Below, piece by piece: positions 35,920 to 48,611 of a stretch of DNA of 64,000 bases (position 1 is its first letter; every line of letters begins with the position of its first letter). The notes under the pieces are model-generated. The model had not been told where the DNA came from. It did not search any database and worked only from the letters and a program-made list of their open reading frames with translations. The DNA comes from Eubacteriales bacterium (GTDB taxonomy: Bacteria; Bacillota; Clostridia; Peptostreptococcales; Anaerovoracaceae), in contig JBAWWY010000007.1 of the NCBI GenBank assembly GCA_037144355.1, forward strand, positions 1,083 through 65,082. The letters run 5' to 3'. The translations under genes were made by a program, and so were the position numbers.

Positions 35920-36201
35920 CTATTGCCCAGTCTTGTCCAATTTTGCTTCAAGCCTTTTGATTTCATCTTCAAGCTGTTTAACTTTCGACTTGCTTGATAG
36001 CGATGGGTCTTCTTTCCACCAATCAATACCTATTTCTTGAGCCTTGTCGACTGAAGCGATAATAAGCCTTATCTTAATTTGAAGCAATTCTACTTCACCA
36101 ACAGATATCTTAATATCTCCGGCAATTACTATGCCTTTATCTAGTATTCTTTCGAGAAGATCCGCTAAAGTATCCCCGGATGTTGATCTTTGAACAGTCA
36201 T
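35920..36201 (-). CDS. gvpJ: Gas vesicle protein, GvpA/J/M family (GvpJ-like)
   Basis: [43 protein letters not shown] is the GvpA-family core, with a longer C-terminal tail. Confidence 0.8.
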   Translation of the reverse strand: MTVQRSTSGDTLADLLERILDKGIVIAGDIKISVGEVELLQIKIRLIIASVDKAQEIGIDWWKEDPSLSSKSKVKQLEDEIKRLEAKLDKTGQ

Positions 36202-36245
36202 AATAATCCTCTTTTCTTACGAGCAAAACCTTTTTTTAATCTTAT

Positions 36246-36581
36246 TTAAAGCAACTTTCCAAGCGGACCGAGATCTATATTCAAATCCGATTCCTTGAGG
36301 TTGAATATTGCCCTCAACTCGGTCATTTTTTCTTCAAGCTTGATAAATGTCTCTCCCATTCTCTCTGTTTCTTCATCTGAAACAGTTCCATTTTCAATTC
36401 TTCTCATTGCTTGATTTTCCATAAGTTTTCTTAATAACTCAATAACAGTCAAAACTAGTTTTGCCAATCCTTGCTCAACGTTTTCTGGATCAAGTCCAAG
36501 ATTATTGCATTTTTCTGGTTTGTTGTCGCTCATTTCCCTGCCAAATAATTCTATATTATTGTCTCCATCCAAATATTCCAT
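36246..36581 (-). CDS. gvpK: Gas vesicle protein K
   Basis: GLAKLVLTVIELLRKLMENQAMRR is the GvpK hallmark. Confidence 0.8.
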   Translation of the reverse strand: MEYLDGDNNIELFGREMSDNKPEKCNNLGLDPENVEQGLAKLVLTVIELLRKLMENQAMRRIENGTVSDEETERMGETFIKLEEKMTELRAIFNLKESDLNIDLGPLGKLL

Positions 36582-36601
36582 TTGTAATCACCCCTTCAAT
36601 A

Positions 36602-37309
36602 TCAGATAGTCAAATTGCAAAAGTTGTAAGGCGGCCAAGGACCAGTAAGAATGAACTTATAAATGCTATTTTCATCCGCTGCCTTCTTATATGCCAAATT
36701 AAAATCAGAAAGGTCTTCCCTTTTAACAAGATAAACTCCATTAAAAAACATATTATCTGTTTTCAGCAAGGTTAATTTACCGGCCGAAGCACAAGCTAAA
36801 AGTTGTTTATGTATTACTTCTGATTCTTTTTCTGCTAAACTCTTGATACCTTCTTCAATTTTATATTCTTTCATTTTCTGATTCAGATAGCTTGCCACTT
36901 TTTCACTTTTGCTTTCCAATTCCTGGATAGTCATGCTGCTTATTAAATTTCCCCTAATTGTTTCATAATCCCACATTACCCTGACTCCGACTTCAACTTT
37001 GCCCGTTAGGTTGCCAATAACTCTTTTCAGTAATTTATACTTTTCTCCCAACATGGTTTTTGCAGTTTTTAAGTCCATGCAAGTTCCAAATCTAAATGGC
37101 AGTATCGTAGCATTATCTTCCAGCAAATTGTCAAGCACGGCCTCATGCGTCATGAAATTATTTTCTGAATATTTAAGTTCTTTGTCAATAACGCTGTATA
37201 TCATGTTCAAATCTTTGAATTTAAACACTAGCACCTTTGCCTTATCCATTCCTAAAACATCTTCGTCAATTGGCTTATCTGAAATGCAATACATATAAAG
37301 TTTTTCCAT
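36602..37309 (-). CDS. Gas vesicle protein GvpF/GvpL family (copy 3)
   Basis: LYMYCIS...VLPFRFGT...GPWPPYNF are the family hallmarks. Start is ATG 37309 or GTG 37318. Confidence 0.8.
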   Translation of the reverse strand: MEKLYMYCISDKPIDEDVLGMDKAKVLVFKFKDLNMIYSVIDKELKYSENNFMTHEAVLDNLLEDNATILPFRFGTCMDLKTAKTMLGEKYKLLKRVIGNLTGKVEVGVRVMWDYETIRGNLISSMTIQELESKSEKVASYLNQKMKEYKIEEGIKSLAEKESEVIHKQLLACASAGKLTLLKTDNMFFNGVYLVKREDLSDFNLAYKKAADENSIYKFILTGPWPPYNFCNLTI

Positions 37310-37331
37310 AATTATCACCCTGCTGAATTAT

Positions 37332-37547
37332 TTATAGAAGCAACCCTGAAACATCCTTCTTTTCTGGCTCTACTCTTAATAGTCTGTCAACCGATGTTAT
37401 TATAACCTGCAGTCCAACATATATAAGGTTCACATCTGCAATGGAGATAATCAAATCTCCTTTTATTACAATGCCTTTATCGAGGATCCTGTCAAGGACT
37501 TCAAATAATGTTACTTCCTTTGATCTTAAAGCGAAATTGTCATCCAT
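37332..37547 (-). CDS. Gas vesicle protein, small GvpA/J/S-family member
   Basis: [41 protein letters not shown]. Confidence 0.8.
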   Translation of the reverse strand: MDDNFALRSKEVTLFEVLDRILDKGIVIKGDLIISIADVNLIYVGLQVIITSVDRLLRVEPEKKDVSGLLL

Positions 37548-37622
37548 GAAAATCCTCCTACAGACTCCCTTGGTTTATACCCAAGCATTATTTTGATCCA
37601 GTCCTTTTTTTCTTTTCTATTT

Positions 37623-38411
37623 TTATATTAATTCAATAAAATTGTATATCGGCCATGGTCTGCTTTCTTGGAGGAAGTACCCGCTTTCTCCATATTTGTC
37701 GTTGATTTTTTCAATTTCGTCTTTCAAATCCTGAAATTTTATTTTATTCGCTAAAACAACCGCGTTCACGATAAGTTCCACTGAATCAACATCCTCTTCA
37801 TTTATTTCCTTTGTAATAATATTTTCGGACAAGGCTTCAATTCTTTCAAATATCTTCTTCGCATCGCGATTCACGCTATCTTGTATTTGTGATTCGATAG
37901 TGTCTTCCAGCTTTTTTGACAACAAATACGCAATCCCTTTTGGTTTTGCAGTAATTTCCTCAATCTTCTTTTTAACATCCGAAGATTCCAATATTGAACT
38001 TTTCATTTTGTCTTTGTCCAGAAATACTTTGATACTGAACTCGAAATTATTGTCGGCAACTTCCAAGTTTTTAACAATTTTCCCATAATGAGTTTTGAGA
38101 AATTCAGCAACGTTTCTTTCATTTTCGTATATGGTTAGGAACCTCATCGGTAAAACTGAATAATTCTCCATTATCTCTTCAATAATATTTTCATGAGCCA
38201 TTGCCCTTTCTTCAACCCATTCCAAATTATCCAAATGCTTGTTCACTGCATCGCTTTGGAACTCTTGTGAATCGACAAGACTTGATACGGCTTGTATATC
38301 CTTGTAATGAAGTATTTCAACTCGATTTATTCCAGATATAGCCGTTGTTACTGTAATCAATTCATTGTCTGTGATCCCTTTAGTAATGCAGTAAATATAT
38401 ATCAAAGACAT
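37623..38411 (-). CDS. Gas vesicle protein GvpF/GvpL family (copy 2)
   Basis: MSLIYIYCIT...VLPMRF...RPWPIYNF. Start set after RBS gaggggga. Confidence 0.8.
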   Translation of the reverse strand: MSLIYIYCITKGITDNELITVTTAISGINRVEILHYKDIQAVSSLVDSQEFQSDAVNKHLDNLEWVEERAMAHENIIEEIMENYSVLPMRFLTIYENERNVAEFLKTHYGKIVKNLEVADNNFEFSIKVFLDKDKMKSSILESSDVKKKIEEITAKPKGIAYLLSKKLEDTIESQIQDSVNRDAKKIFERIEALSENIITKEINEEDVDSVELIVNAVVLANKIKFQDLKDEIEKINDKYGESGYFLQESRPWPIYNFIELI

Positions 38412-38415
38412 AGTA

Positions 38416-38613
38416 TCAATCCCCCTCTCCCTGATTTTCGGCAAGCAAGTCTAGTAACTCGCCTTCTCTTTCCTCATATTCTTCCTCTGTAATCTCCCCA
38501 AGGTTCAACCTTTGCTCAAGTTCAGCTAATTGTTTTTTTATTGAGGCTGGCCCATATAATTCCTTATCAACTTCATCTTTTATTATCTCTGCCAATTTTA
38601 TTAAAAGCGACAT
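38416..38613 (-). CDS. gvpG: Gas vesicle protein G
   Basis: 65 aa: LIKLAEIIKDEVDKELYGP..LAELEQRLNLGEITEEEYEEREGELL is the typical GvpG pattern. Confidence 0.75.
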   Translation of the reverse strand: MSLLIKLAEIIKDEVDKELYGPASIKKQLAELEQRLNLGEITEEEYEEREGELLDLLAENQGEGD

Positions 38614-38640
38614 TCTTGATCTCCTTATTTATCCTGATAT

Positions 38641-39378
38641 TTATTGAATATTAACAAAACTATATGGAGGAAAAGGTCCTGTACATTTGAAATTCAATTT
38701 ATTTTCATACTTGGCGTCGAGTTCGATTATTAATTTGTCGAAAGCCTCTTCCATATCCTTTCCAATCAGAAATGAGGCGTTTAACACCATTTCATTAGAT
38801 AAATTCTCATTGGCGATGGATTCGTCGGCGAATGCCGAAAGCCTATCAAATATATCATCTTTGTAATTAAGGGAAATCGCGTTCAATTCTCTTTCGATCA
38901 TTTTTCCCACTTCAATAATCAAATTAAGATTCCCGGTTACAATTGTTTTTTCTCTTTTTAATTGTTCAATCACTTGGTTGGAATCTGCGATGGAACTCAA
39001 TACTTCTTCCACATTTGCATGGGATACCTTAACTCCCATTTCAAATTTATTGCTTACCTTGTCAAGCAGGTTCTTAAAACTCATGTACTTTGACTCGAGC
39101 ATTTTAACAACACCTTTTTCATTATCAGCCACAATCCCGAATCTGAATGGCAGAACTGGATATTTTTCCATAACCTTTTCAATTGTCCCTTGGTGGACAA
39201 GATTGTTTTTTCGAGTTGGCCTATATTGCTTAATTTCAGCATTGGAAACCACCGCGGAAATATCCTTGTATTTTATTGTGAAGATTTCCTCATCCTCATT
39301 TTCAATTCCGCCCCTTCCAAATGATGAAACTTCAGGTGCGTTTGTTATGCAATATAGATATAATCCCATTTGCGCCAT
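38641..39378 (-). CDS. Gas vesicle protein GvpF/GvpL family (copy 1)
   Basis: LYLYCIT...VLPFRFG...GPFPPYSF. Confidence 0.8.
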   Translation of the reverse strand: MAQMGLYLYCITNAPEVSSFGRGGIENEDEEIFTIKYKDISAVVSNAEIKQYRPTRKNNLVHQGTIEKVMEKYPVLPFRFGIVADNEKGVVKMLESKYMSFKNLLDKVSNKFEMGVKVSHANVEEVLSSIADSNQVIEQLKREKTIVTGNLNLIIEVGKMIERELNAISLNYKDDIFDRLSAFADESIANENLSNEMVLNASFLIGKDMEEAFDKLIIELDAKYENKLNFKCTGPFPPYSFVNIQ

Positions 39379-39416
39379 TTTGCATCCTTTCTATTGTTAA
39401 ATTCCATGCTGTTCTT

Positions 39417-41540
39417 TTACTTAATCATATAACCTAAATCTTCAATTGCGGTAAAAAAATCTTCCTCCCTGACAATGAAATCCGATATGTCTTCATATTG
39501 AATCTCCTTATGTTCTGCTATATATCTTTTTATAGCCGACATTGCGGCTTTCTTGCAAATATTTTCAATATTGGCCCCTGTAATATTATTTATCTGCTTT
39601 AATATCAATTCAAAATGCATACCGACCTCAACCGGCATCTTGCCTGCGTGAATTCGGAAAATTTCAAGCGCATCTTCAAAACATGGTTCTAATATATTAT
39701 AAATTATATCAAATCTTCCTGATCTCAATAACGCCGGATCTAATATGTCCACCCTATTGGTAGCAGCTAGAATCATAATTCCATCTCTTTTTTCAATGCC
39801 ATCAATTTCCACAAGAAGCTGGCTTAAAACCCTTTCCGAAACCCCTGAATCTCCACCTCCTGAGCCTCTTTTTGGTGCAAGCGAGTCAATCTCGTCAAAG
39901 AATATTATGCAAGGCGACGCAAGTCTTGCCTTTTTAAATACTTCCCTTACTCCTTTCTCACTCTCACCAATCCACTTTGATAATAATTCTGGTCCTTTTA
40001 TATAAATGAAATTTATGCCAGTTTCATTTGCAAGTGCTTTAGCAATCAATGTTTTCCCAGTTCCTGGAGGACCAGACAAAAGGACACCCCTTCCTGGTCT
40101 TACCCCTGTGGCTTCAAATAATTTTGGGTAAAGCAGTGGTAGTCTAATTTCGTTTTCCAGATCGCTTTTAATTTTCTTAAATCCTCCAACATCTTTCCAT
40201 GTAACTTTAGGAACATCCATGAACACCTCTCTCAGTGCTGAAGGTTCGATTTGGTTTACAGCATACATGAAGTTGGCCATATTGACCTTGAGCTGCATAA
40301 TAACGTCGTAAGGAATAGCCCTCAAATTGAAATCAATATCCGGCAGTACTTTCGCCAAAGCATTCATAGCTGCCTCCCTGCATAGATTAGCAATGTCCGC
40401 GCCCACAAAACCATGGGTAATCTCTGCAATCTTCTCAAGGTCCACATCATCATCAAGAGGTATCGACCTTGAATGAACATTTAGTATTTCCAATCTTCCG
40501 TTCTTGTCTGGAACACCAATATAGATTTCCCTGTCAAAACGACCTGGCCTTCTAAGCGCGGTATCTAAAAGCTCCGGCATATTCGTTGCACCAATTACAA
40601 CAATCTGCCCTCGCTTCTCCAACCCATCCATCAGTGTCAGAAGTTGTGTAACAACCCTTTTTTCCACATCTCCCTGAACATCGCCTCGTTTTGGTGCTAT
40701 GGCATCAATTTCATCAATAAAAACAATCGAAGGCGCATTTTTCTTAGCTTCGTCAAAAACCTTTCTTAGGTTTGCCTCGCTTTCCCCATAGAATTTTTGT
40801 ATTATTTCCGGCCCATTTATGCTAACAAAATGTGTTGATGCTTCATTTGCAATTGCTCTTGCAATTAATGTCTTTCCCGATCCTGGAGGTCCATATAGCA
40901 AAACTCCCCTCGGTGGTTCTATCCCTAATTTAACAAACAAGTCAGGATACTTGAGTGGAAGTTCAATCATTTCACGAATTTTTCCAATTTGCTTTTTTAA
41001 TCCGCCGATATCTTCATAAGTTATTTTTCTTTCTGATATCCTTGCATTGCCAGCTTTTAAAAAGAATGCAGTATCCTTGCCAACAACCACAATATCTGAA
41101 GGTTCGGTTTTTTTGACTAGGAAGTCTTCATTGATAAAACCAAACACATTGACTTTAATTACATCTCCTTCGCTTATTGGTTGGCCTTCCATTGCTTTTG
41201 CAAGATATTTTGTGAAATTGCTGTTTTCGTCAATACTTCTTGATGGTTCAATTACAATTTGTTTTGCTTGTATCGCAATTAGTTTCTCAACCTGGACTTT
41301 ATCGTTAATGGCGACACCGGCATTACCCCTTGTGGTGCCATCGATTTCTATGATATTTTTGCCCCTCTCATCAATAAAAGAAGGCATAGCTTTAACAGCC
41401 GTGCGCTTCTTTCCAATAATCTTTATTAGGCTGCCCGTCTCAATCCCAAGTTCGCTGAAAAACAGCGGGTCAATTCTTGCGATTCCTCTTCCTGCATCCT
41501 TGCTTGAACATTCAGATACGCTGAGAAAAATATCGTCCAT
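39417..41540 (-). CDS. CDC48/VAT-type AAA+ ATPase (N-domain + D1 + D2) embedded in the gas-vesicle cluster
   Basis: 707 aa. CDC48-N-like GRGIARIDP...GSLIKIIGKKRTAV, two Walker A motifs (GPPGSGKT, GPPGTGKT), two Walker B motifs (IVFIDEID, IIFFDEID), and SRH regions (ALRRPGRFD, ALLRSGRFD). Confidence 0.85.
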   Translation of the reverse strand: MDDIFLSVSECSSKDAGRGIARIDPLFFSELGIETGSLIKIIGKKRTAVKAMPSFIDERGKNIIEIDGTTRGNAGVAINDKVQVEKLIAIQAKQIVIEPSRSIDENSNFTKYLAKAMEGQPISEGDVIKVNVFGFINEDFLVKKTEPSDIVVVGKDTAFFLKAGNARISERKITYEDIGGLKKQIGKIREMIELPLKYPDLFVKLGIEPPRGVLLYGPPGSGKTLIARAIANEASTHFVSINGPEIIQKFYGESEANLRKVFDEAKKNAPSIVFIDEIDAIAPKRGDVQGDVEKRVVTQLLTLMDGLEKRGQIVVIGATNMPELLDTALRRPGRFDREIYIGVPDKNGRLEILNVHSRSIPLDDDVDLEKIAEITHGFVGADIANLCREAAMNALAKVLPDIDFNLRAIPYDVIMQLKVNMANFMYAVNQIEPSALREVFMDVPKVTWKDVGGFKKIKSDLENEIRLPLLYPKLFEATGVRPGRGVLLSGPPGTGKTLIAKALANETGINFIYIKGPELLSKWIGESEKGVREVFKKARLASPCIIFFDEIDSLAPKRGSGGGDSGVSERVLSQLLVEIDGIEKRDGIMILAATNRVDILDPALLRSGRFDIIYNILEPCFEDALEIFRIHAGKMPVEVGMHFELILKQINNITGANIENICKKAAMSAIKRYIAEHKEIQYEDISDFIVREEDFFTAIEDLGYMIK

Positions 41541-41552
41541 TTGAAATACTCC

Positions 41553-42092
41553 CTATTTAATTAGTTTCTTTAAACTCAATTCAAGCATTCCATTTACATA
41601 ACTTTTTTTGATTGGCTCCTGTTCTACTTCGCTCTTGAACAACAGTTCCTTTTCATATTCCCTAGTAGTCGATTTTGCTGAAATCTGAACAATATCTCCA
41701 TTGATAATGACTTTTATATCATCTTCCGAAACCCCTGGGATTTCTGCTATTACAGTGTAAGTTGCCCCTTCATCCATAATATCCACAATTGGCTCCCGAG
41801 TAGAATCAATAAAAACCTCCCCGTCCTTTTCATCTTTTTTAATCTTGTTTCCAAATTCTTCTATGGATGTGCTGCCATCCAGTGTCCTGACAGTAAATCC
41901 ATAGATACCTTTAACTTTTCCTCCCGTTTCGCTCAAAGTCCCTTCTCTTTTTATTTCGCCTCCGCTCAAATCAGAAACAGTGTTCATGATATCCTTCAAA
42001 CCACCAAACAATTTTCCCAAACCAAAATCAATGTTTATATTTATATCACCCTTCTCATCAATTTTTATATTTCCTTTTTTTTTATCATCCAT
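41553..42092 (-). CDS. Hsp20/alpha-crystallin-family small heat-shock protein (gas-vesicle-cluster associated)
   Basis: C-terminal ACD: YTVIAEIPGVSEDDIKVIINGDIVQISAKS...YVNGMLELSLKK. Confidence 0.7.
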   Translation of the reverse strand: MDDKKKGNIKIDEKGDININIDFGLGKLFGGLKDIMNTVSDLSGGEIKREGTLSETGGKVKGIYGFTVRTLDGSTSIEEFGNKIKKDEKDGEVFIDSTREPIVDIMDEGATYTVIAEIPGVSEDDIKVIINGDIVQISAKSTTREYEKELLFKSEVEQEPIKKSYVNGMLELSLKKLIK

Positions 42093-42118
42093 AACTATTA
42101 TTCACCTGCCAATATGCT

Positions 42119-42451
42119 TTAATATTCTACTTCAATAATTTTAATTTTATTGTATGGGTTGTTCTCATTCAGTTTTCCAGGTTGATAATACCCAGTGCCA
42201 ACCTGTACATCTCTTCGCCTTTGAGATATATATGCTTCCATGTCATCGATTTCACTTTCAACTCTGTTTAATTCGTATTTAGCTGCATTAGCCTTAGTTT
42301 CACAAGTCGTTATAATATTTTGCAGCATGTTTTTTCTTGAATGAAGTACCTGCAAGTCGAAATAGATAGACCCTTCTTTCTTTGGAATGCTGCTGAGTGG
42401 CCTACTGGATACTTGGGTCTTACAGAAACTGCCTCTATTTTTAATTATCAT
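42119..42451 (-). CDS. Hypothetical protein within the gas-vesicle cluster
   Basis: 110 aa with a good RBS (aagaaggga). Predicted helical middle section. No family recognised. Confidence 0.4.
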   Translation of the reverse strand: MIIKNRGSFCKTQVSSRPLSSIPKKEGSIYFDLQVLHSRKNMLQNIITTCETKANAAKYELNRVESEIDDMEAYISQRRRDVQVGTGYYQPGKLNENNPYNKIKIIEVEY

Positions 42452-42531
42452 GTTTAAATCCCTTCTTTACAAAATCTAAAATTTTCGTCATTCAACCTGA
42501 CAATTTACTAATGATGCAATTATATTCATGC

Positions 42532-43494
42532 TCAACAATGCTTGTTGATGAGTTCATCAACTACCTGTTTGCTAATATTCTTAGAATCGTTTTCCATTGC
42601 CAAATTGTTAATCTTGGAGCATAACATGTCATAAGCCACTTTACGGAAAAATGCATCCTTCTTTGATGCGTGACAATTGTTTTCCTTCAATATCTTCCCC
42701 ATCATAACTCCAACCCTTAGGGATGGAATCGATGAATATGATCCATTATTCCTAAAATCCCTTATCAAGTTTACAATTTTGTCTGCATCCTCATAAGCGA
42801 TATTTGCTCTTCCCCTTACAATTTCCCTTTCTGTCTCGGCATCCATATATCCCATATTGATTGTTATCATCCTGTCAAGAAGGGCATCCTGGATTTTATG
42901 AACTCCAGCATATTCTTCCGAATTGCTGGTGAAAATAGCCTTAAAATTCGGATGAACTTTTACATATCTTTCGGAGCTCATCGAATCGCTTGTTTCCAAC
43001 ATTCTTTCTTCGAATATATTTAGTAGAATATTATTCGTTTCTGGCCTTGAACGATTAAATTCATCATATATAAGAGTAAAACCGTTTCTGCATGCAATAG
43101 TAAGCTGGTTGTCAACCCACTTCTTTTGATAGTCATCAACGGTTTTCAATACGGAGTGTATGTAATTGTCAACAAGTTTCTCTCTTCTATATCCGGCCTC
43201 CGAACCAACGAGGTCAGAAGGAAGATATTCATCATTGCCATGAATGATTGTTACCGGGACATTGAAGCAAGAGGCTACGTGCATGGCAAGGGTTGTCTTG
43301 CCTGTACCGGCAGGTCCCCTTAGATGAACAGGATATCCGGCATTCAGATATCTGGTGACTCTCATGGTCAGCTCTTTTATATATGGTGTAATAACATACG
43401 AATCTTGCTTCTTCAGCCTTATCGCAACCGGTTCGTATGGATTTTCCGACCTTTCAATAATATCGATTTGCTCAATTTGACGGATTTGCTCCAT
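42532..43494 (-). CDS. gvpN: Gas vesicle protein N (MoxR/CbbQ-like AAA+ ATPase)
   Basis: YPVHLRGPAGTGKTTLAMHVA (Walker A) and LIYDEFNR (Walker B). The size and position after the gvpO-like gene fit gvpN. Confidence 0.8.
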   Translation of the reverse strand: MEQIRQIEQIDIIERSENPYEPVAIRLKKQDSYVITPYIKELTMRVTRYLNAGYPVHLRGPAGTGKTTLAMHVASCFNVPVTIIHGNDEYLPSDLVGSEAGYRREKLVDNYIHSVLKTVDDYQKKWVDNQLTIACRNGFTLIYDEFNRSRPETNNILLNIFEERMLETSDSMSSERYVKVHPNFKAIFTSNSEEYAGVHKIQDALLDRMITINMGYMDAETEREIVRGRANIAYEDADKIVNLIRDFRNNGSYSSIPSLRVGVMMGKILKENNCHASKKDAFFRKVAYDMLCSKINNLAMENDSKNISKQVVDELINKHC

Positions 43495-43520
43495 TCTCAA
43501 CACCTCCCCGCTTTTTACTC

Positions 43521-43793
43521 CTACGCTGAAGGTTCAATTGGTCCAATGTCGGTCCTCTCTCGCAAATGCATTCGCTTGAAGCCCATAACCATTCCATTGT
43601 CGTCCAATTCCACTTCATAAAGACCAACTAGGTCGGTCTTTGCAAATTTCCTAACATACTCGGATTCCTCAATAATTTCAAAATGGGAAACCCACTTATT
43701 TTCTTTCTTTACAAGTTCAATTATCTTACCGGTTTGGCTGAAATTACCGGAAATAAATTCGAGCACCTTATCCCTGATCTGGATAAATTCCAT
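43521..43793 (-). CDS. gvpO: GvpO-like gas vesicle protein
   Basis: 90 aa: ...WVSHFEIIEESEYVRKFAKTDLVGLYEVELDDNGMVMGFKRMHLRER. This resembles the GvpO/GvpR C-terminal pattern (Y-x-V-x-L-D..G-x-V-x-G-(F/Y)-x-R). Start set at MEFIQ, which follows gaggggg. Confidence 0.55.
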   Translation of the reverse strand: MEFIQIRDKVLEFISGNFSQTGKIIELVKKENKWVSHFEIIEESEYVRKFAKTDLVGLYEVELDDNGMVMGFKRMHLRERTDIGPIEPSA

Positions 43794-43820
43794 AAAAAAA
43801 CCCCCTCGCTCCAATTACTG

Positions 43821-44123
43821 TCAATCTGTCTTTTTTTCCGGCATATAACTTCTGATAACCTGGTAAAACATGCCGATTTCATTTAATATGTTCGATCTGG
43901 CTGATGGGTTTGTTGTTTCTGATAATGAGTTGAATCTTTTCAACACTTCATCAATGTAATCCCCCAAGGCTTGAAGCTGCTTATTTGCTTCAATGTCCTG
44001 GCTATTGGATATCATAATGTCAATTTTTTCTTTCAAATTGGGAAGAGCCTGGATTATCTCTTCATAGACTCTTTCCATTTCATCATTTCTTCTATCGATA
44101 TCATCATTCATATCCTGCGACAT
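43821..44123 (-). CDS. Hypothetical acidic helical protein within the gas-vesicle cluster
   Basis: 100 aa. No family recognised. Confidence 0.4.
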   Translation of the reverse strand: MSQDMNDDIDRRNDEMERVYEEIIQALPNLKEKIDIMISNSQDIEANKQLQALGDYIDEVLKRFNSLSETTNPSARSNILNEIGMFYQVIRSYMPEKKTD

Positions 44124-44163: not shown

Positions 44164-44643
44164 TTAGCTCGGCTTGGTTTTTCTTTTAACAGTGTTCCAT
44201 TCTTTTCTCGCACCAGACATATCCTTGTGAAAACCACCTAACATTCCGCCGACATTATCTCTCAAATCATTTGCAAAAGCATTAAGTGATGTTCTTGTAT
44301 CATCGCCCATGTTTTTTCTTGCTTCATTGAAATCTGCAATCATTCCACTTACATCGGTTTTCAACTTGTTCAGTTCTAAAACTCTAATTCTTGTATCTTC
44401 TATACTGTTTCTTATTCTTTGCTTTCGATAATCATTAATCATATTGCTGACCTCTGACTTTAGTTTTTTAAGTTCGGCCATTCTATGCTTGGTATCATCC
44501 AAATTCATCTTTGTTCTATGTTTGCGAAAATTATTCATCATATTTACATTAGTCTTTTTTAAAGAACGAATGTATCCCTGCCTTTTATCATAATTGCTAT
44601 CTATATCCATTCTCAATGATCTCATCGCACTGGTTAAACTCAT
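44164..44643 (-). CDS. Repeat protein made of 33-residue units, directly downstream of gvpA (candidate GvpC-like gas-vesicle shell-stiffening protein)
   Basis: 159 aa from MSLTS, after RBS ggaaggaggt. Consecutive 33-aa units: NMMNNFRKHRTKMNLDDTKHRMAELKKLKSEVS / NMINDYRKQRIRNSIEDTRIRVLELNKLKTDVS / GMIADFNEARKNMGDDTRTSLNAFANDLRDNVG, then a partial unit GMLGGFHKDM... Units 2 and 3 match at 16 of 33 positions. Confidence 0.6.
   Translation of the reverse strand: MSLTSAMRSLRMDIDSNYDKRQGYIRSLKKTNVNMMNNFRKHRTKMNLDDTKHRMAELKKLKSEVSNMINDYRKQRIRNSIEDTRIRVLELNKLKTDVSGMIADFNEARKNMGDDTRTSLNAFANDLRDNVGGMLGGFHKDMSGARKEWNTVKRKTKPS
44248..44643 (-). repeat. Four tandem 99-nt (33-codon) coding repeats
   Basis: Period seen in the translation: aa 1-33, 34-66, 67-99, 100-132. 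The repeats are degenerate at the DNA level. Confidence 0.6.
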
Positions 44644-44677
44644 GATGTCTACCTCCTTCCAATATTCATTTAACATT

Positions 44678-44701
44678 GTGGGAGAGACTAGTCTCTCCCA
44701 C
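44678..44701 (-). other. Perfect 24-nt palindrome (RNA hairpin) in the gvpA-downstream intergenic region
   Basis: GTGGGAGAGACTAGTCTCTCCCAC. No U-run follows on the coding (minus) strand. Confidence 0.7.
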
Positions 44702-44819: not shown

Positions 44820-45041
44820 TTAAGCGGCATGTGGTTGTGCAGCTGTTGCGGTAAGTCCAACTGCCTCTGCATATTTCAAATATGTTTCAACAGATGCGAT
44901 TACCAACCTTAATTCAATTGCTATTAGCTCGATCCCTACCAACGAAACCCTGGCCCACAAATCAACAACAATACCTTTGTCCAAAATTCTGTCGATAACT
45001 TCAGCGAGACTAGATGATGAGTTTGTTTTTTCTACTGCCAT
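44820..45041 (-). CDS. gvpA: Major gas vesicle structural protein GvpA
   Basis: 73 aa: [63 protein letters not shown]. This is near-canonical GvpA. RBS is gggaggtg. Confidence 0.95.
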
Positions 45042-45204: not shown

Positions 45205-46410
45205 GTGGTGCTGGGTTTGTCCAAAAATCAACAATTAAGATCTGACATTATACGCCAAGCCAATTCAGGATTACTAACCGTTCCAAAAGCTGCCTTTGCC
45301 CTTGGTATATCAGAAAGACAAGTTCAACGTCTGAAGAAAATTATGAGAATTTCGGATTCTGGTGATTCCTCTGGTTTGAATTCTATTAGGAAAGCATACA
45401 ACTCCATACCCGAAGATATTAAAAATAGTATTCTTGAGATAAAAAATCAGGAAGAATATATTAATTGTAATTTTTATAATTTCAATGAAATACTAAGTAA
45501 TTTCTATGATATAAAAATTAGCTACTCAACTTTATATAAAATCTTATCATACAATGGATACAAATCTCCGAAAACCAGGAGACGTTTCAAAAGGCATACT
45601 AGAATTAAAAAAATAACTAATAGCCGGGTGCTTTTTCAATTAGTCTCCCCATCATTTGCATGGTTTGGGAATAAGGAAGAATATATTCTACATATTGATA
45701 TAGCGAATACCCCTTCACAGATTTCTGCTATTTATTTGAAAAGTAGTGAAGATTCTATTAATGTCACTAGTATGAAAGAGTCTCCTAAAAAGTTTTCAAA
45801 GTTTATTGGTGAGGAAGATAGCAATGACAAAAGTCTTTCCATAGTAAGGTTGCCGGATTCCGATTGGATTTCCATAACGCCCCATGGTAATACAGTTTAT
45901 CAAAATAACAGTAATCATTTTGGCAAACCTCCAAAAAAAAATATTGGGACCAAGCTAATAGCCCCTAGATCCCCACACAGCAAGCTTCGTATCGATAGAC
46001 TTTGGGAAATTCTACAGGGTTGGCTTTCAATAGAGTTTGCTCAAAGGGAAATTAAAAGCATAGATCAAGCAAATAAATATCTTCGCGTTTTTGTTCAAGC
46101 AAATACACCTCTCGGCAGTTATATTTCAAATTTAAACGACCGATTTATTCTGCCTATGGATAGTCTTGAGGGCGATATAATTAAAGCACTTGCAAAGTTT
46201 AATTTTGATGAGGATTTCATGCGCAAGAAGAAGCTATCCATGAAAAGAGCCGGACTTGTTTCAATAAAAAACGCCAGCTTCAAAATGGATAAGCAGTTGT
46301 TTGAAAAAAAGAATTTTGAAGAATATATGAAAAGAAGAGTTGTTTATAAAAATCGTGATACTGAAATTTTAGATATGATTTCAGAAATATTCCAAAAGAG
46401 CTATAAATAG
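45205..46410 (+). CDS. ISNCY-like transposase-derived HTH protein with a degenerate catalytic core (possibly domesticated)
   Basis: N-terminal HTH (AAFALGISERQVQRLKK). Collinear with the ISNCY-type transposase pattern: Y..FN..F.E.L...Y.I.ISYSTLYKIL; L-Q-x-[D]-xSP..WF here reads LFQLVSPSFAWF (Asp replaced); IDDAT here reads IDIAN; SPQAKGRIER here reads SPHSKLRIDR. GTG start. Confidence 0.55.
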   Translation: MVLGLSKNQQLRSDIIRQANSGLLTVPKAAFALGISERQVQRLKKIMRISDSGDSSGLNSIRKAYNSIPEDIKNSILEIKNQEEYINCNFYNFNEILSNFYDIKISYSTLYKILSYNGYKSPKTRRRFKRHTRIKKITNSRVLFQLVSPSFAWFGNKEEYILHIDIANTPSQISAIYLKSSEDSINVTSMKESPKKFSKFIGEEDSNDKSLSIVRLPDSDWISITPHGNTVYQNNSNHFGKPPKKNIGTKLIAPRSPHSKLRIDRLWEILQGWLSIEFAQREIKSIDQANKYLRVFVQANTPLGSYISNLNDRFILPMDSLEGDIIKALAKFNFDEDFMRKKKLSMKRAGLVSIKNASFKMDKQLFEKKNFEEYMKRRVVYKNRDTEILDMISEIFQKSYK

Positions 46411-46475: not shown

Positions 46476-47126
46476 TTAATTATTCATAAGCTCATTTGCC
46501 AGGGTAACTGCCTCTGCCGCGTTTTCGCTAAAACCATCGGCTCCAATCTTTTGGCACCATCTGGAAGTTACAGGTGCTCCACCTACCATTGTTTTAAATC
46601 TGCCTTTGAGTCCACGTTCTTTCAACAGAGACTCCAGCTTTTGTTGCTGTATCATGGTAGTGGTGAGCAATGTGCTTGTGCCAATAATATCCGCATTATG
46701 TTTAACGGCTTCTTCAATGATATTCTCATTGGAGACATCCCTTCCAAGATCAATGACTTCAAAGCCGTTGGCAACTAAAAGCGAAGCAACAATGCACTTG
46801 CCTATGTCATGTAAATCGCTCTCAACGGTTGCAAGTATTATTCTGCCCTTTTGCTTCCTCTTTTCTCCCCGGTCCTCCATTGCCTTGTTGAGAATTTCCA
46901 CAGCTTCCTTTATTGCATCTGCCGCCATCATGACTTCAGGTAAAAACACTTCGCCATCTTCAAACAAATCCCCTATTTCCATAATCCCTGGTACAAATCC
47001 CTTTTCTATAAATTCTTCAGGCTCAACTCCATCGTCAAGACCCTTTTGTGCGAGAGATAGGGCGAGAATTTTATCGCCATCAATGATGGATTGCTTTGCT
47101 GCTTCTAATAATTTAGAATCAATCAT
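46476..47126 (-). CDS. Methyltransferase-cognate corrinoid (B12-binding) protein, MtbC/MttC-like
   Basis: 216 aa. The B12-binding-2 cap is followed by ESDLHDIGKCIV (DxHxxG), then GTSTLLTTT and GGAP. Its ATG overlaps the stop of mtbB by 1 nt. Confidence 0.85.
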   Translation of the reverse strand: MIDSKLLEAAKQSIIDGDKILALSLAQKGLDDGVEPEEFIEKGFVPGIMEIGDLFEDGEVFLPEVMMAADAIKEAVEILNKAMEDRGEKRKQKGRIILATVESDLHDIGKCIVASLLVANGFEVIDLGRDVSNENIIEEAVKHNADIIGTSTLLTTTMIQQQKLESLLKERGLKGRFKTMVGGAPVTSRWCQKIGADGFSENAAEAVTLANELMNN

Positions 47127-48544
47127 TATTTTTGTCCCCTCTCATGCATATATTTTGGGAGATACATTCCAGTCTTCTTTGAGAATTTCTCAACACAGTT
47201 GATTTCAATATCCAGCAATTTTGAGATATTTGCCTTAGCTTCAATTCCCCGACTTACAGCTCCATAACCCATAAATATAGTTCCAATATCCAACTCTTCC
47301 CTTCGCTCCCGCATGACAACCTCATCGGTTAGATCAAGCAGGCTTACTCCGAGTTTTTCTGCAACATATCTTTTTGCTTCATCGAGTTTCATGCTCTTTG
47401 CAAGCTGCATTCTTGACACCAGATCTCCGGCTGTCCTTATGCCGCCCATTCCAGATGCTTGACTGTGAACAATTGCCATTCCAGAGGGATCGCCATAGCC
47501 TACCTACAACCCATCCAACTTTCCGATTTCCGCCATTGCCGTAGATGCTCTAGAGACGCAGTCAATTGGTGGAGTAATTTGCATTGGAACTCCTCCGACT
47601 CCCATGCCCACATTTGCGTGCACTGGTATTGGAGAAACCTCTGCGGCATATTTGCACATTGTCAGTGCTCTTGCAAGGTTCCATGGGAAACTTTTTCTAG
47701 TATTGGTATTCACTACTGCTCCAAATACGTTTCCACCAGCTTCGGCTACAATCTTCGCTTGGTCGTGTGGGTACATTCCTGCTAGCCTTTTACCCTTGTA
47801 CTCAAGCTCGCTATGGAATCCCAGCACAAATTCTCCCGACATTCCAACTTCAATATTAATATCAGGATACTTAGCTCTCAGCCTCTCAACTCCGTGAAGA
47901 ACAGCATAAAATTCAGCATCTCCCCCTGCTGCAGTAGTATCGAAATCAATTCCGTCGGCACCAGCTTCATACATTGCCGATCCAACAACGTTTATATCTT
48001 TTATCAGCATTTCTGCTGCCATGACCTGTGCCTCTTGAGCTTCTTTTATAAACCCTTTCGGCATCAGCTCAGCTGAATTCTCGCATGGGCCGTCAGGTTT
48101 TGTATACATTGGCATATTTGGCATTGCGCCATAAAGCAAAGGTGGCGTGGTTACCAGAAGTGCTTCGGCAACAGCATACTGCTCTTCAGGCAAGATGGAT
48201 TTCACGGATTTGAAACTATAATGAACGTAAGCCATCTCCAGGGTATCTGCCATCATCGCCCTTTCATATAATTGAAGTATCTGAGGCATAGCTATAGGAA
48301 TTCCCAGTCTGGTAATCTTCAGGGGCTGAGAATCGTAGCTTAAAACAAGTTCATTCCCGCGTTCCACGCTTACGAATTTTCTCGGCTCACAGATTATGCC
48401 CATCAATCTTTCAATATCGTCATCTGTAAGTGGTGGGCATTTTGCTTTCTTAGCTGCTGTCATTACTCCGTCTTCGATATCTTTTCTGATTTCTGAAGTT
48501 GACATTTCAATAAAATAACCGTCTCCCATTCTCGTTAAAACCAT
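47126..48544 (-). CDS. mtbB: Dimethylamine methyltransferase MtbB with an in-frame UAG (predicted pyrrolysine) at codon 347
   Basis: Track ORFs 47504-48580 and 47126-47479 are in the same frame and are separated only by TAG (47506-47504) plus 8 sense codons. Read-through gives ...AEIGKLDGL-[UAG][29 protein letters not shown]... The full 472-aa product is collinear with archaeal MtbB as I recall it (~467 aa, Pyl ~356), e.g. [39 protein letters not shown]. Start is [10 protein letters not shown], after RBS aaggaga. Confidence 0.85.
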
Positions 48545-48611
48545 AAGTTTTCTCCTTATAATAACAAGTGCTATAAGCAACTAAAAATATATATGGTAGG
48601 TTAATATAATA

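Follow-up and report, generated by a model that had tools for sequence, protein, structure and literature searches.

A Basic 33-Residue-Repeat Protein Encoded Beside gvpA in a Clostridia Gas Vesicle Cluster, a Probable Divergent Relative of GvpC

Introduction

To our knowledge, GvpC is the sole known handle on the stiffness of gas vesicles, and fusions are by standard made to it when acoustic reporters and antigen display are engineered. The residues conserved in the GvpC repeat are L4, F11, L12, R19, L30, and F33 (Huber et al., 2023, PMC9994262), and in Anabaena one 33-residue unit has been proposed to cover four GvpA subunits (PMC9994262). The gvpC gene of Serratia sp. ATCC 39006, which lies in the gvpA-gvpC-gvpN position, encodes a proven stiffener (Tashiro et al., 2016, PMC4982088), the collapse pressure being 0.43 MPa with the gene intact and 0.14 MPa in its mutant (PMC4982088). 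The haloarchaeal protein has less regular helical repeats of 32–39 residues and a C-terminal globular domain (PMC9501494). Bacillus megaterium, the Firmicute model, has been described without GvpC, and it is on this species that the view of Bacillus-type clusters as devoid of gvpC is based (PMC9994262).

Here we describe ORF159, a gene in a cluster from Clostridia (a Eubacteriales MAG) which lies directly downstream of gvpA, as a preliminary description of the window had it (the window being the whole stretch of 64,000 nucleotides that was analyzed). ORF159 reveals no new kind of system; it appears to be a previously unannotated GvpC relative, and our analysis suggests that a GvpC-type protein is encoded by at least some Clostridia clusters.

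Gene and Repeat Structure

The features of the locus are collected in Table 1. A start giving 159 aa is favored over the alternative at 44676, which would give 170 aa, because a GGAGG Shine-Dalgarno sequence lies 8 nt before the ATG at 44643; loci L001 and L007 have kept this GGAGG in their homologous intergenic regions.

Table 1. Features of the locus, with positions in the window.
Feature	Position	Strand	Remarks
ORF159	44643..44164	minus	159 aa + stop; ORF calling and translation
Shine-Dalgarno GGAGG	44652..44656	minus	8 nt 5' of ATG at 44643
N-terminal cap MSLTSAMRSLRMDIDSNYDKRQGYIRSLKKTNV, residues 1–33	44545..44643	minus	family start M(S/G)xLTxxMxxL...R conserved
Repeat unit 2 NMMNNFRKHRTKMNLDDTKHRMAELKKLKSEVS, residues 34–66	44446..44544	minus	
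Repeat unit 3 NMINDYRKQRIRNSIEDTRIRVLELNKLKTDVS, residues 67–99	44347..44445	minus	16/33 identities with unit 2
Repeat unit 4 GMIADFNEARKNMGDDTRTSLNAFANDLRDNVG, residues 100–132	44248..44346	minus	of the ORF159 units, nearest the family consensus
Truncated fifth unit, C-terminal family motif GFHKDMSGARKEW, basic tail NTVKRKTKPS, stop	44164..44247	minus	
gvpA, major shell protein, presumed binding partner	45041..44820	minus	PF00741, E = 7.6e-15
ORF100, acidic helical protein	43821..44123	minus	between ORF159 and gvpO
gvpN	43503..42532	minus	separated from ORF159 by ORF100 and gvpO
Rest of gvp operon	35920..43814	minus	Pfam and NCBIfam matches, ORF list
Perfect 10-bp hairpin GUGGGAGAGA-CUAG-UCUCUCCCAC	44678..44701	minus	gvpA-ORF159 spacer; no U-tract

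The preliminary description had the 159 residues dividing exactly into units of 33. This holds for units 2–4, but residues 1–33 are a conserved cap and a poor copy of the repeat, and the fifth unit is truncated. We therefore describe ORF159 as a cap, three full units, and a last, truncated unit that ends in a basic tail. The unit boundaries first proposed were reproduced, with units 2–4 starting (N/G)M(M/I)xx(F/Y) and the partial fifth unit starting GMLGGFHK, and a count by hand of residues 34–66 against 67–99 returned the same 16 identical positions. The unit consensus of the family is xMxAGFRxxHAEMAxETKxxLxAFVSDLKxxVx. In the 30-sequence family alignment, M1 and R21 of the cap are invariant and D141, A145, and W149 are nearly so. 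The cap aligns, via the homologue P0008, with the non-repeat N-terminus of Nostoc GvpC, and the C-terminal motif GFHKDMSGARKEW also aligns with P0008.

The 33-residue period stood up to a formal repeat check. Comparison of ORF159 with itself gave 30 identities in 126 positions at a lag of 33 (BLOSUM z = 8.4), to be set against a maximum z of 5.2 over all lags in 5000 shuffles of the protein; a lag of 66 gave z = 3.4 and the remaining lags all gave z ≤ 2.5. The nearest homologue, P0001, is 62% identical and at 126 aa falls 33 residues short of ORF159, and in a MAFFT alignment this difference takes the form of two gaps inside one stretch that sum to 33 residues. The P0001 gene sits in a syntenic cluster.

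AlphaFold2, run with the family alignment, returned a single continuous helix over residues 3–156 with a mean pLDDT of 96.4, as had been expected from the sequence, and ORF159 is thereby predicted to form an uninterrupted amphipathic alpha-helix approximately 23 nm long. The hydrophobic moment of the whole helix is maximal at 99 degrees per residue, which corresponds to 3.64 residues per turn, and reaches 0.709 vs. 0.506 ± 0.075 in shuffles; because it peaks at this angle, one straight hydrophobic stripe would run along the protein. The high charge noted earlier amounts to 34.6% charged residues and a net charge of +15.

Genomic Context

ORF159 begins 176 nt 3' of gvpA on the same strand. The GvpA of the window is identical to Nostoc GvpA at 61 of 71 residues, and the stretch V51–V61, the modeled GvpC site, is the same in both, including Glu52 and Glu59. 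Beyond ORF100, the operon comprises gvpO, gvpN, ORF110, genes for an Hsp20-like (GvpH-like) protein and a CDC48-family AAA ATPase, gvpF, gvpG, gvpL, a gvpA-like gene of 71 aa, gvpF/L, gvpK, and a gvpJ-like gene, gvpK being assigned on account of its ~82% tblastn match to an L001 gene bearing PF05121. ORF100 was found by tblastn in L001 and is missing from L007. It has no Pfam or NCBIfam family, and an NCBIfam search was equally without a meaningful family for ORF159 and ORF110.

The hairpin in the spacer between gvpA and ORF159 appears in the MFE and centroid folds alike, with the whole spacer folding at z = −2.9. Its stem is kept in L001 with a different loop, and L007 has a 12-bp stem of other sequence at the equivalent place. 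Terminator prediction on the spacer did not score the hairpin as an intrinsic terminator, and we regard it as a candidate 3' end, attenuator, or stabilizer of the gvpA transcript.

A search of 1.84 billion proteins at E < 1e-3 gave the family of ORF159 a total of 92 representatives. Its members are named "hypothetical protein" almost throughout in public sources, the exceptions being one JGI entry called "gas vesicle protein" and a few entries with unrelated names. In all 30 family contexts examined (the window, L001, L007, L008, L009, L010, L039, the P0008 contig, and GTDB loci), gvpA is immediately upstream on the same strand, and gvpN is downstream wherever the contig is long enough. The GTDB loci, from Desulfobacterota, Rokubacteria, Methylomonas, and others, have the gvpA adjacency in 23 of 23 cases. 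The family gene usually occupies the gvpA-gvpC-gvpN position, with ORF100 and/or gvpO placed ahead of gvpN in the ORF159 subgroup. A close-alignment genome scan of GTDB species representatives returned no ORF159-type relatives, so that all known members of this subgroup come from metagenomes and MAGs. An Octadecabacter gene upstream of gvpN was also considered as a family member and was ruled out as unrelated by sequence comparison.

These contexts bear on a further alternative, in which ORF159 would be one of the generic amphipathic-helix proteins (phasin-, apolipoprotein-, or LEA/YtxH-like), would coat a membrane or a hydrophobic inclusion of another kind, and would lie beside gvpA by chance. 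Apolipoproteins are eukaryotic lipid-binding proteins and phasins are proteins of PHA granules, with 22-residue periods. The exchangeable apolipoproteins (ApoA-I, ApoA-IV; PF01442) and the phasins have in common with ORF159 long amphipathic helices and repeats based on 11 residues, and weak matches were obtained to the Pfam models Apolipoprotein (13 of 30 family members), ApoLp-III, phasin PhaH, PhaP_Bmeg, and YtxH. All of these matches, however, fall under the gathering thresholds. ORF159 itself has no PF01442 match, the best family member reaching 44.1 bits vs. a cutoff of 90, and its comparison with the apolipoproteins of the PDB gave zero matches at E ≤ 1. Apolipoproteins and phasins also have no genomic link to gvp genes, unlike the ORF159 family, whose placement directly 3' of gvpA in gvp clusters at 30 of 30 loci from several phyla effectively refutes a chance neighborhood. 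We thus give this explanation very little credence, and on the sequence comparisons the resemblance to apolipoproteins and phasins is taken as analogy.

Relation to Cyanobacterial GvpC

The preliminary description saw no obvious similarity to cyanobacterial GvpC, and direct searches agree with it. The PF01304 model (Gas_vesicle_C) had no match to ORF159 at E ≤ 1 and none to five family members at E ≤ 10, while Anabaena GvpC was recovered in the same search with E = 1.1e-75. BLASTP of ORF159 against Anabaena GvpC produced zero alignments, the direct phmmer comparison with GvpC gave 2.1 bits, and hhalign against GvpC assigned a probability of 11% to the broad family and 2.4% to the ORF159 subgroup. 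This absence of direct similarity is what one would expect if the family were a convergent analogue, unrelated to GvpC by descent and still an external stiffener, since a rib-bound helix would have to align one face (9 turns) and at the same time match four GvpA subunits. The terminal motifs that the family has of its own point in the same direction.

At the level of the repeat unit, more can be seen. The family unit HMM scores 33.4 bits on Anabaena GvpC, with control values of −2.0 for ApoA-I and −1.8 for alpha-synuclein; this score was attained by 0 of 1000 shuffles, by 0 of 1000 repeat-preserving column permutations, and by 11 of 1000 hendecad-preserving permutations. A single, unique circular shift places L4, F11, L12, R19, L30, and F33 of the GvpC repeat on L28, M2, L3, H/R10, L21, and F24 of the family unit, a correspondence which holds at the family level with p = 0.0002 under a random null and p = 0.01 under the hendecad-preserving null. 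That the latter null is exceeded only at p ~ 0.01 again leaves room for convergence. In ORF159 itself, units 2, 3, and 4 all retain four of the six positions equivalent to those of GvpC, and positions 21 and 24 match only in unit 4, with R at position 21 and E at position 24 in units 2 and 3. A C-terminal likeness between FRQNLS of GvpC and FHKDMS of ORF159 was dropped, since its register disagrees with that of the repeat alignment.

The two proteins appear to be joined by intermediates. Residues 1–138 of ORF159 align by BLASTP with residues 1–138 of P0008 (52 bits, E = 5e-13, ungapped from Met1; whole-library E-value 5.1e-9), and residues 7–164 of P0008 align with residues 1–158 of the annotated Nostoc sphaeroides GvpC (59.7 bits, E = 1e-15, ungapped). 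At the profile level, hhalign gave a probability of 98.9% for the ORF159 subgroup with the intermediate subgroup and of 96.0% for the intermediate subgroup with GvpC. The strongest direct ORF159-GvpC diagonals (−27, −60, 6, −93) are all in the register class that this chain predicts. It is also important to consider that amphipathic repeat proteins can match unrelated families, so that part of the chain could reflect convergence; the intermediate-subgroup profile matches human apolipoprotein A-IV at 50.8 bits, and such profiles evidently match non-homologous amphipathic repeats. Against this, both BLASTP links run ungapped from the N-terminus across a non-repeat cap and several units, P0008 reaches 54.5 bits with Nostoc GvpC and no more than 15.4 bits with any sequence in the PDB, the apolipoproteins among them, the GvpC profile does not match apolipoproteins, and the gene holds the same position beside gvpA and ahead of gvpN.

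Of the two possibilities raised at the outset, homology at great divergence and convergence, the first is favored because the intermediates link ORF159 to P0008 and P0008 to Nostoc GvpC, and the second is kept as the lesser rival. We consider it probable that ORF159 belongs to the GvpC lineage and has diverged strongly within it, and convergence seems unlikely.

The comparison of ORF159 with cyanobacterial GvpC (PF01304; Anabaena flos-aquae P09413, Nostoc sphaeroides WP_118171794.1) can be extended to overall design. Both genes lie directly 3' of gvpA, both proteins are all-helical (ORF159 by prediction) with a short N-terminal cap followed by tandem 33-residue repeats, and the GvpA alpha-2 target is identical to that of Nostoc/Anabaena; in GvpC and the ORF159 family as a whole the unit number varies among relatives, and a conserved Leu/Phe(Met)/Arg stripe appears to run along one side of the helix in matching register. 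There are also differences. The repeats of ORF159 are far less uniform than the near-identical units of Anabaena GvpC (16 of 33 identities even in the best pair, units 2 and 3), the protein is strongly basic, unlike cyanobacterial GvpC, and the position equivalent to Phe11 is Met in ORF159. The family C-terminal motif GFxxDMxGA(R/K)xxW (D-x-x-G-A-R/K-x-x-W) has no counterpart in cyanobacterial GvpC, and ORF100 and gvpO interrupt the canonical A-C-N order of GvpC clusters.

Proposed Function

With this in mind, we infer that ORF159 is most likely an external rib-binding stiffener. The unchanged V51–V61 stretch of GvpA, the net charge of +15, and the proven Serratia stiffener in the equivalent gene position speak for this reading. 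GvpA would polymerize into ribs, and the ORF159 helix would then lie along the rib on its outer surface, where each unit may dock on the GvpA alpha-2 helices by way of its conserved stripe (positions 2, 3, 6, 10, 13, 21, 24/25, 28, 32). One 33-residue unit (49.5 Å) would cover four GvpA subunits, and the full protein roughly 18–19. By tying adjacent GvpA subunits together, ORF159 would raise the critical collapse pressure, and the number of units could tune both the strength and the width of the vesicle. ORF159 may be held sub-stoichiometric to GvpA by the hairpin conserved in the spacer between the two genes.

A different role in the same pathway would be that of an assembly factor, in which ORF159 acts as a chaperone, scaffold, or molecular ruler during vesicle growth, binding nascent ribs or single GvpA subunits, and mature vesicles either lack it or can do without it. 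Chaperone-like genes are indeed plentiful in the cluster (Hsp20-like, CDC48-family AAA, GvpN), and some relatives encode two paralogous helical proteins between gvpA and gvpN, which suggests a division of labor. Haloarchaeal GvpC, moreover, interacts with many Gvp proteins and shapes vesicles (PMC9501494). A conserved stripe that recurs periodically and a modularity of exactly 33 residues are nevertheless a better fit to a lattice-bound protein than to a monomer chaperone, and the counterparts of ORF159 in cyanobacteria and Serratia, related to it by gene position and through the chain by sequence, serve as structural stiffeners (PMC9994262, PMC4982088). We judge an assembly role improbable relative to external stiffening.

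The Serratia or proteobacterial GvpC position is shared by family members from Desulfobacterota, Methylomonas, and Methylosinus; Serratia GvpC is likened to the ORF159 family by gene position alone. Haloarchaeal GvpC (PF05465, Halo_GVPC) is likewise encoded after gvpA and before gvpN, and its similarity to the family is marginal, with 12.6 bits to the best family member and 1.3 bits for the unit HMM. It is very acidic where ORF159 is basic, and ORF159 has no C-terminal domain, unlike the haloarchaeal protein.

The ORF159 family offers a simple annotation fix, for many anaerobic lineages (Desulfobacterota, Nitrospirota, Rokubacteria, methanotrophs, and Atribacterota) have unannotated relatives that escape Pfam and NCBIfam. 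It also provides a wide natural library of putative stiffeners that differ in charge and in the length of their units, and comparative data from which to learn how a helix reads the GvpA lattice.

Repeat Lengths Across the Family

A period of 33 is the top one in 50 of the 92 family representatives, and the dominant repeat lengths among family members are 33, 40, 51, 58, 73, and 84 residues. These lengths correspond approximately to whole numbers of helical turns (9, 11, 14, 16, 20, and 23) and also to 4, 5, 6, 7, 9, and 10 GvpA subunits at roughly 12.1–12.7 Å, while lengths that fit the turn rule only, such as the apolipoprotein-type 22, are dominant in no family member. One tentative and rather doubtful reading is that the family consists of molecular rulers quantized by the GvpA lattice. 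If this were true, unit length and number would predict vesicle width and strength, and the period of ORF159 would be set by rib geometry, so that convergence would come about as easily as descent. In some family members units of 33 residues alternate with units of 40, and the C-terminus bears an HhH or winged-helix-like domain; the irregular repeats and C-terminal domain of haloarchaeal GvpC recall this arrangement.

Repeat structure and predicted fold of ORF159

The 33-residue periodicity suggested by the preliminary description was borne out by a formal repeat check. On self-comparison of ORF159, a shift of 33 gives 30 identities over 126 positions with a BLOSUM z of 8.4, while a shift of 66 gives z = 3.4 and all remaining shifts z ≤ 2.5; the top z across all shifts in 5000 shuffles was 5.2. 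The protein comprises an N-terminal cap (residues 1–33), three full units (34–66, 67–99 and 100–132) and a final unit that is cut short and ends in a basic tail; units 2 and 3 do agree at 16 of 33 positions, as reported. It is indeed highly charged (34.6% charged residues, net +15) and predicted to be helical: AlphaFold2, supplied with a family alignment of 30 sequences, gives a single unbroken helix over residues 3–156 at a mean pLDDT of 96.4. Computed over the full helix, the hydrophobic moment is greatest at 99 degrees per residue, or 3.64 residues per turn, as an 11/3-type helix with a straight hydrophobic stripe would give. The residues conserved in all three units (positions 2–3 Met/Ile, 6 Phe/Tyr, 10 Arg, 28 Leu and 32 Val) fall within a stripe of about 66 degrees. 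We prefer the 159-aa start to an in-frame ATG 33 nt further upstream because the chosen ATG is preceded at 8 nt by a Shine-Dalgarno sequence (GGAGG); this start lies 176 nt after the gvpA stop.

Features of the gvp region in the window
Feature	Coordinates	Strand	Remarks
CDC48-family double-AAA ATPase and Hsp20-like genes	39417-42092	minus	ATPase: TIGR01243, E=8e-261
ORF110	42119-42451	minus	no Pfam or NCBIfam family
ORF100	43821-44123	minus	no Pfam or NCBIfam family
ORF159	44643..44164	minus	159 codons
Hairpin	44678-44701	minus	perfect 10-bp stem, 4-nt loop, no U-tract
gvpA	45041..44820	minus	PF00741, E=7.6e-15; MEI8216513.1
Helix-turn-helix protein gene	45205-46410	plus	401 aa
Corrinoid protein gene	46476-47126
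Dimethylamine methyltransferase gene	47126-48580	minus	PF09505 (Dimeth_Pyl)
In-frame TAG	47506..47504	minus	splits the gene into 358-aa and 117-aa ORFs

A gvpA-linked family

A word-indexed search with ORF159 returned one relative, P0001, a protein of 126 aa from a syntenic gvp cluster that is 62% identical and 33 residues shorter, the gaps in the MAFFT alignment totalling 33 and all lying within one stretch. With phmmer, run exhaustively against 1.84 billion representatives, 92 proteins were recovered at E<1e-3; they have in common an N-terminal cap M(S/G)xLTxxMxxL...R, an internal unit consensus xMxAGFRxxHAEMAxETKxxLxAFVSDLKxxVx and a C-terminal motif D(M/I/L)xGA(R/K)xxW. The dominant period is 33 in 50 of the 92 and 40, 73 (33+40), 51, 18 or 11 in the rest, all of them near-integral numbers of helical turns. 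The public name of nearly all is "hypothetical protein"; a few bear unrelated names, and a single JGI entry is labelled "gas vesicle protein". None carries PF01304, the GvpC family, in public annotations, and current domain libraries miss this broad gvpA-linked family. Many relatives also have, after a linker, a small C-terminal domain of nucleic-acid-binding type that ORF159 lacks: HhH/DUF4332 in P0012, P0016, P0020 and others, winged-helix-like in P0006, P0007, P0008, P0021, P0038 and others. P0003 likewise has an extra C-terminal domain. Such domains may act in tethering, clustering or regulation.

All retrieved contexts of the family are gvp clusters in which a same-strand gvpA lies a short way upstream, a placement that equals the gvpA-gvpC-gvpN arrangement of cyanobacteria and haloarchaea. 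The ORF159 subgroup is found in the window and at loci L001 and L007; the deltaproteobacterial type is exemplified by P0012 in L009, exactly between gvpA and gvpN; and members of the intermediate "MGIADSMK" subgroup (P0005, P0006, P0008 and P0022) follow gvpA at a distance of one to two genes, with one helical protein preceding the family gene in the clusters of P0006, P0008 and P0022. At L039, the N-terminus of that preceding protein resembles the family cap. Among GTDB species representatives, 23 of 23 loci (Desulfobacterota, Rokubacteria, a Methylomonas MAG, Hatepunaea and others) are in gvp context, with the gvpA end about 90–370 nt upstream and gvpN next wherever the contig allows. A RefSeq case, the "hypothetical" WP_161915288.1 of Methylosinus sp. 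C49, sits between gvpA and gvpN and has the C-terminal motif. Five Desulfobacterota-type loci (L019, L021, L025, L028 and L031) have a second gvpA about 450 nt after the first, inside the region that the family query covers, which suggests tandem gvpA / short GvpC-like / gvpA / GvpC-like arrangements.

Relation to GvpC

The statement that ORF159 has no obvious direct similarity to GvpC holds: PF01304 was not matched in direct tests (Anabaena GvpC, as reference, gave E=1e-75), BLASTP gave no alignment, and direct hhalign comparisons reached only 11% and 2.4%. On sequence comparison, the "MGIADSMK" subgroup appears to bridge the two. ORF159 1–138 aligns ungapped with P0008 1–138 (52 bits, E=5e-13), and P0008 7–164 aligns ungapped with residues 1–158 of an annotated Nostoc sphaeroides GvpC (59.7 bits, E=1e-15), both alignments running from the N-terminal Met across the cap and on over several units. 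Profile-profile comparison gave 98.9% (E=3.5e-17) between the ORF159 and intermediate subgroups and 96.0% (E=4.9e-9) between the latter and GvpC.

The register evidence is consistent with this chain, which predicts that ORF159 residue i corresponds to GvpC residue i-6. The top direct ungapped diagonals (-27, -60, 6 and -93) all fall in the predicted class modulo 33, as does the short hhalign match between the ORF159 subgroup and GvpC. In a circular profile comparison of the family unit with GvpC, a single shift stands out (7.3 vs. -8.3 for the next best), at which the conserved GvpC residues of Huber et al. (PMC9994262), L4, F11, L12, R19, L30 and F33, map to family L28, M2, L3, H/R10, L21 and F24. 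Against an HMM built from the family unit (33 positions), Anabaena GvpC scores 33.4 bits with five in-register matches, a score reached by 0 of 1000 shuffles, 0 of 1000 repeat-preserving column permutations and 11 of 1000 hendecad-preserving permutations; the scores of apolipoprotein A-I and alpha-synuclein are negative.

Convergence of amphipathic repeats is a live rival explanation of this likeness, since such repeats can match one another's profiles spuriously: the intermediate-subgroup profile matches human apolipoprotein A-IV at 50.8 bits, and 13 of 30 family members have sub-threshold Pfam Apolipoprotein matches. However, P0008 alone has no PDB match above 15.4 bits and yet scores 54.5 bits against Nostoc GvpC, the GvpC profile does not match apolipoproteins, and the chain takes in the non-repeat N-terminus. 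For these reasons we favor distant homology, and ORF159 is probably a remote homologue of GvpC. That it works like GvpC is predicted with greater assurance and seems likely; the functional reading is the better supported because PF01304 was not matched and the termini are family-specific. The GvpC-analogue interpretation is supported, and we would class ORF159 with the GvpC-type proteins, as a divergent member from a Clostridia cluster that lacks annotation as such.

Proposed mode of action

The GvpA of the window is identical to Nostoc GvpA at 61 of 71 positions and throughout V51–V61 (including Glu52 and Glu59), the part of alpha-2 at which GvpC has been modelled to bind (PMC9994262). Most likely, the ORF159 helix would lie along the rib with its conserved stripe inserted between GvpA alpha-2 helices and its basic residues paired with GvpA glutamates, tying together about 18–19 GvpA subunits and so raising collapse pressure. 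In Serratia, mutation of a gene in the same cluster position, likened to ORF159 by that position and not by sequence, lowers collapse pressure from 0.43 to 0.14 MPa (PMC4982088).

An ideal helix of 33 residues spans 49.5 Å; at the outer surface, four GvpA subunits span 50.8 Å (PMC9994262). The dominant family unit lengths of 33, 40, 51, 58, 73 and 84 residues correspond to about 9, 11, 14, 16, 20 and 23 helical turns and, at 1.5 Å per residue and a subunit spacing of 12.1–12.7 Å, to about 4, 5, 6, 7, 9 and 10 GvpA subunits. The apolipoprotein-type length of 22 is dominant in none of the 92 representatives in the period analysis. We speculate that this double commensurability would explain the preservation of 33.

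The hairpin in the gvpA-ORF159 spacer is found some 20 nt 5' of the Shine-Dalgarno sequence of ORF159. L001 has the same stem with a changed loop and L007 a different 12-bp inverted repeat at the equivalent place, a pattern that looks like structural conservation. The hairpin may be the 3' end of the gvpA transcript or an attenuator setting the GvpA:GvpC-like ratio; speculatively, it could limit read-through and keep ORF159 sub-stoichiometric.

Other features of the gvp operon

The minus-strand operon reads gvpA, ORF159, ORF100, gvpO, gvpN, ORF110, Hsp20-like, CDC48-family AAA ATPase, gvpF, gvpG, gvpL, a small GvpA-like protein, gvpF/L, gvpK and a GvpJ-like protein. Proteins of the window match MEI8216494–MEI8216519 of the Eubacteriales bacterium MAG at NCBI exactly, and the designation "Firmicute-type cluster" is therefore correct. 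The Hsp20-like/CDC48-family pair also occurs in most retrieved Desulfobacterota and related clusters (L009, L011–L033 and L039), a recurrence that points to a conserved unfoldase/holdase module serving vesicle assembly in those lineages. ORF110 is kept beside gvpN in L001, L003 and L007, and unnamed genes of similar size (107–110 aa) adjoin gvpN in the P0008 contig and L039; ORF100 is present in L001 and absent from L007. Of the two, ORF110 at least seems to be a conserved gvp gene without a name.

The helix-turn-helix gene lies immediately upstream of and divergent from gvpA, and L001, L002 and L003 have a 378-aa HTH_23/28/29 protein at the equivalent divergent position; the window's gene may encode the operon's own regulator and not be a transposase remnant. 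The in-frame TAG that splits the dimethylamine methyltransferase gene (PF09505) of the window is the signature of a pyrrolysine codon, and a corrinoid protein gene adjoins it; this organism therefore probably decodes UAG as pyrrolysine.
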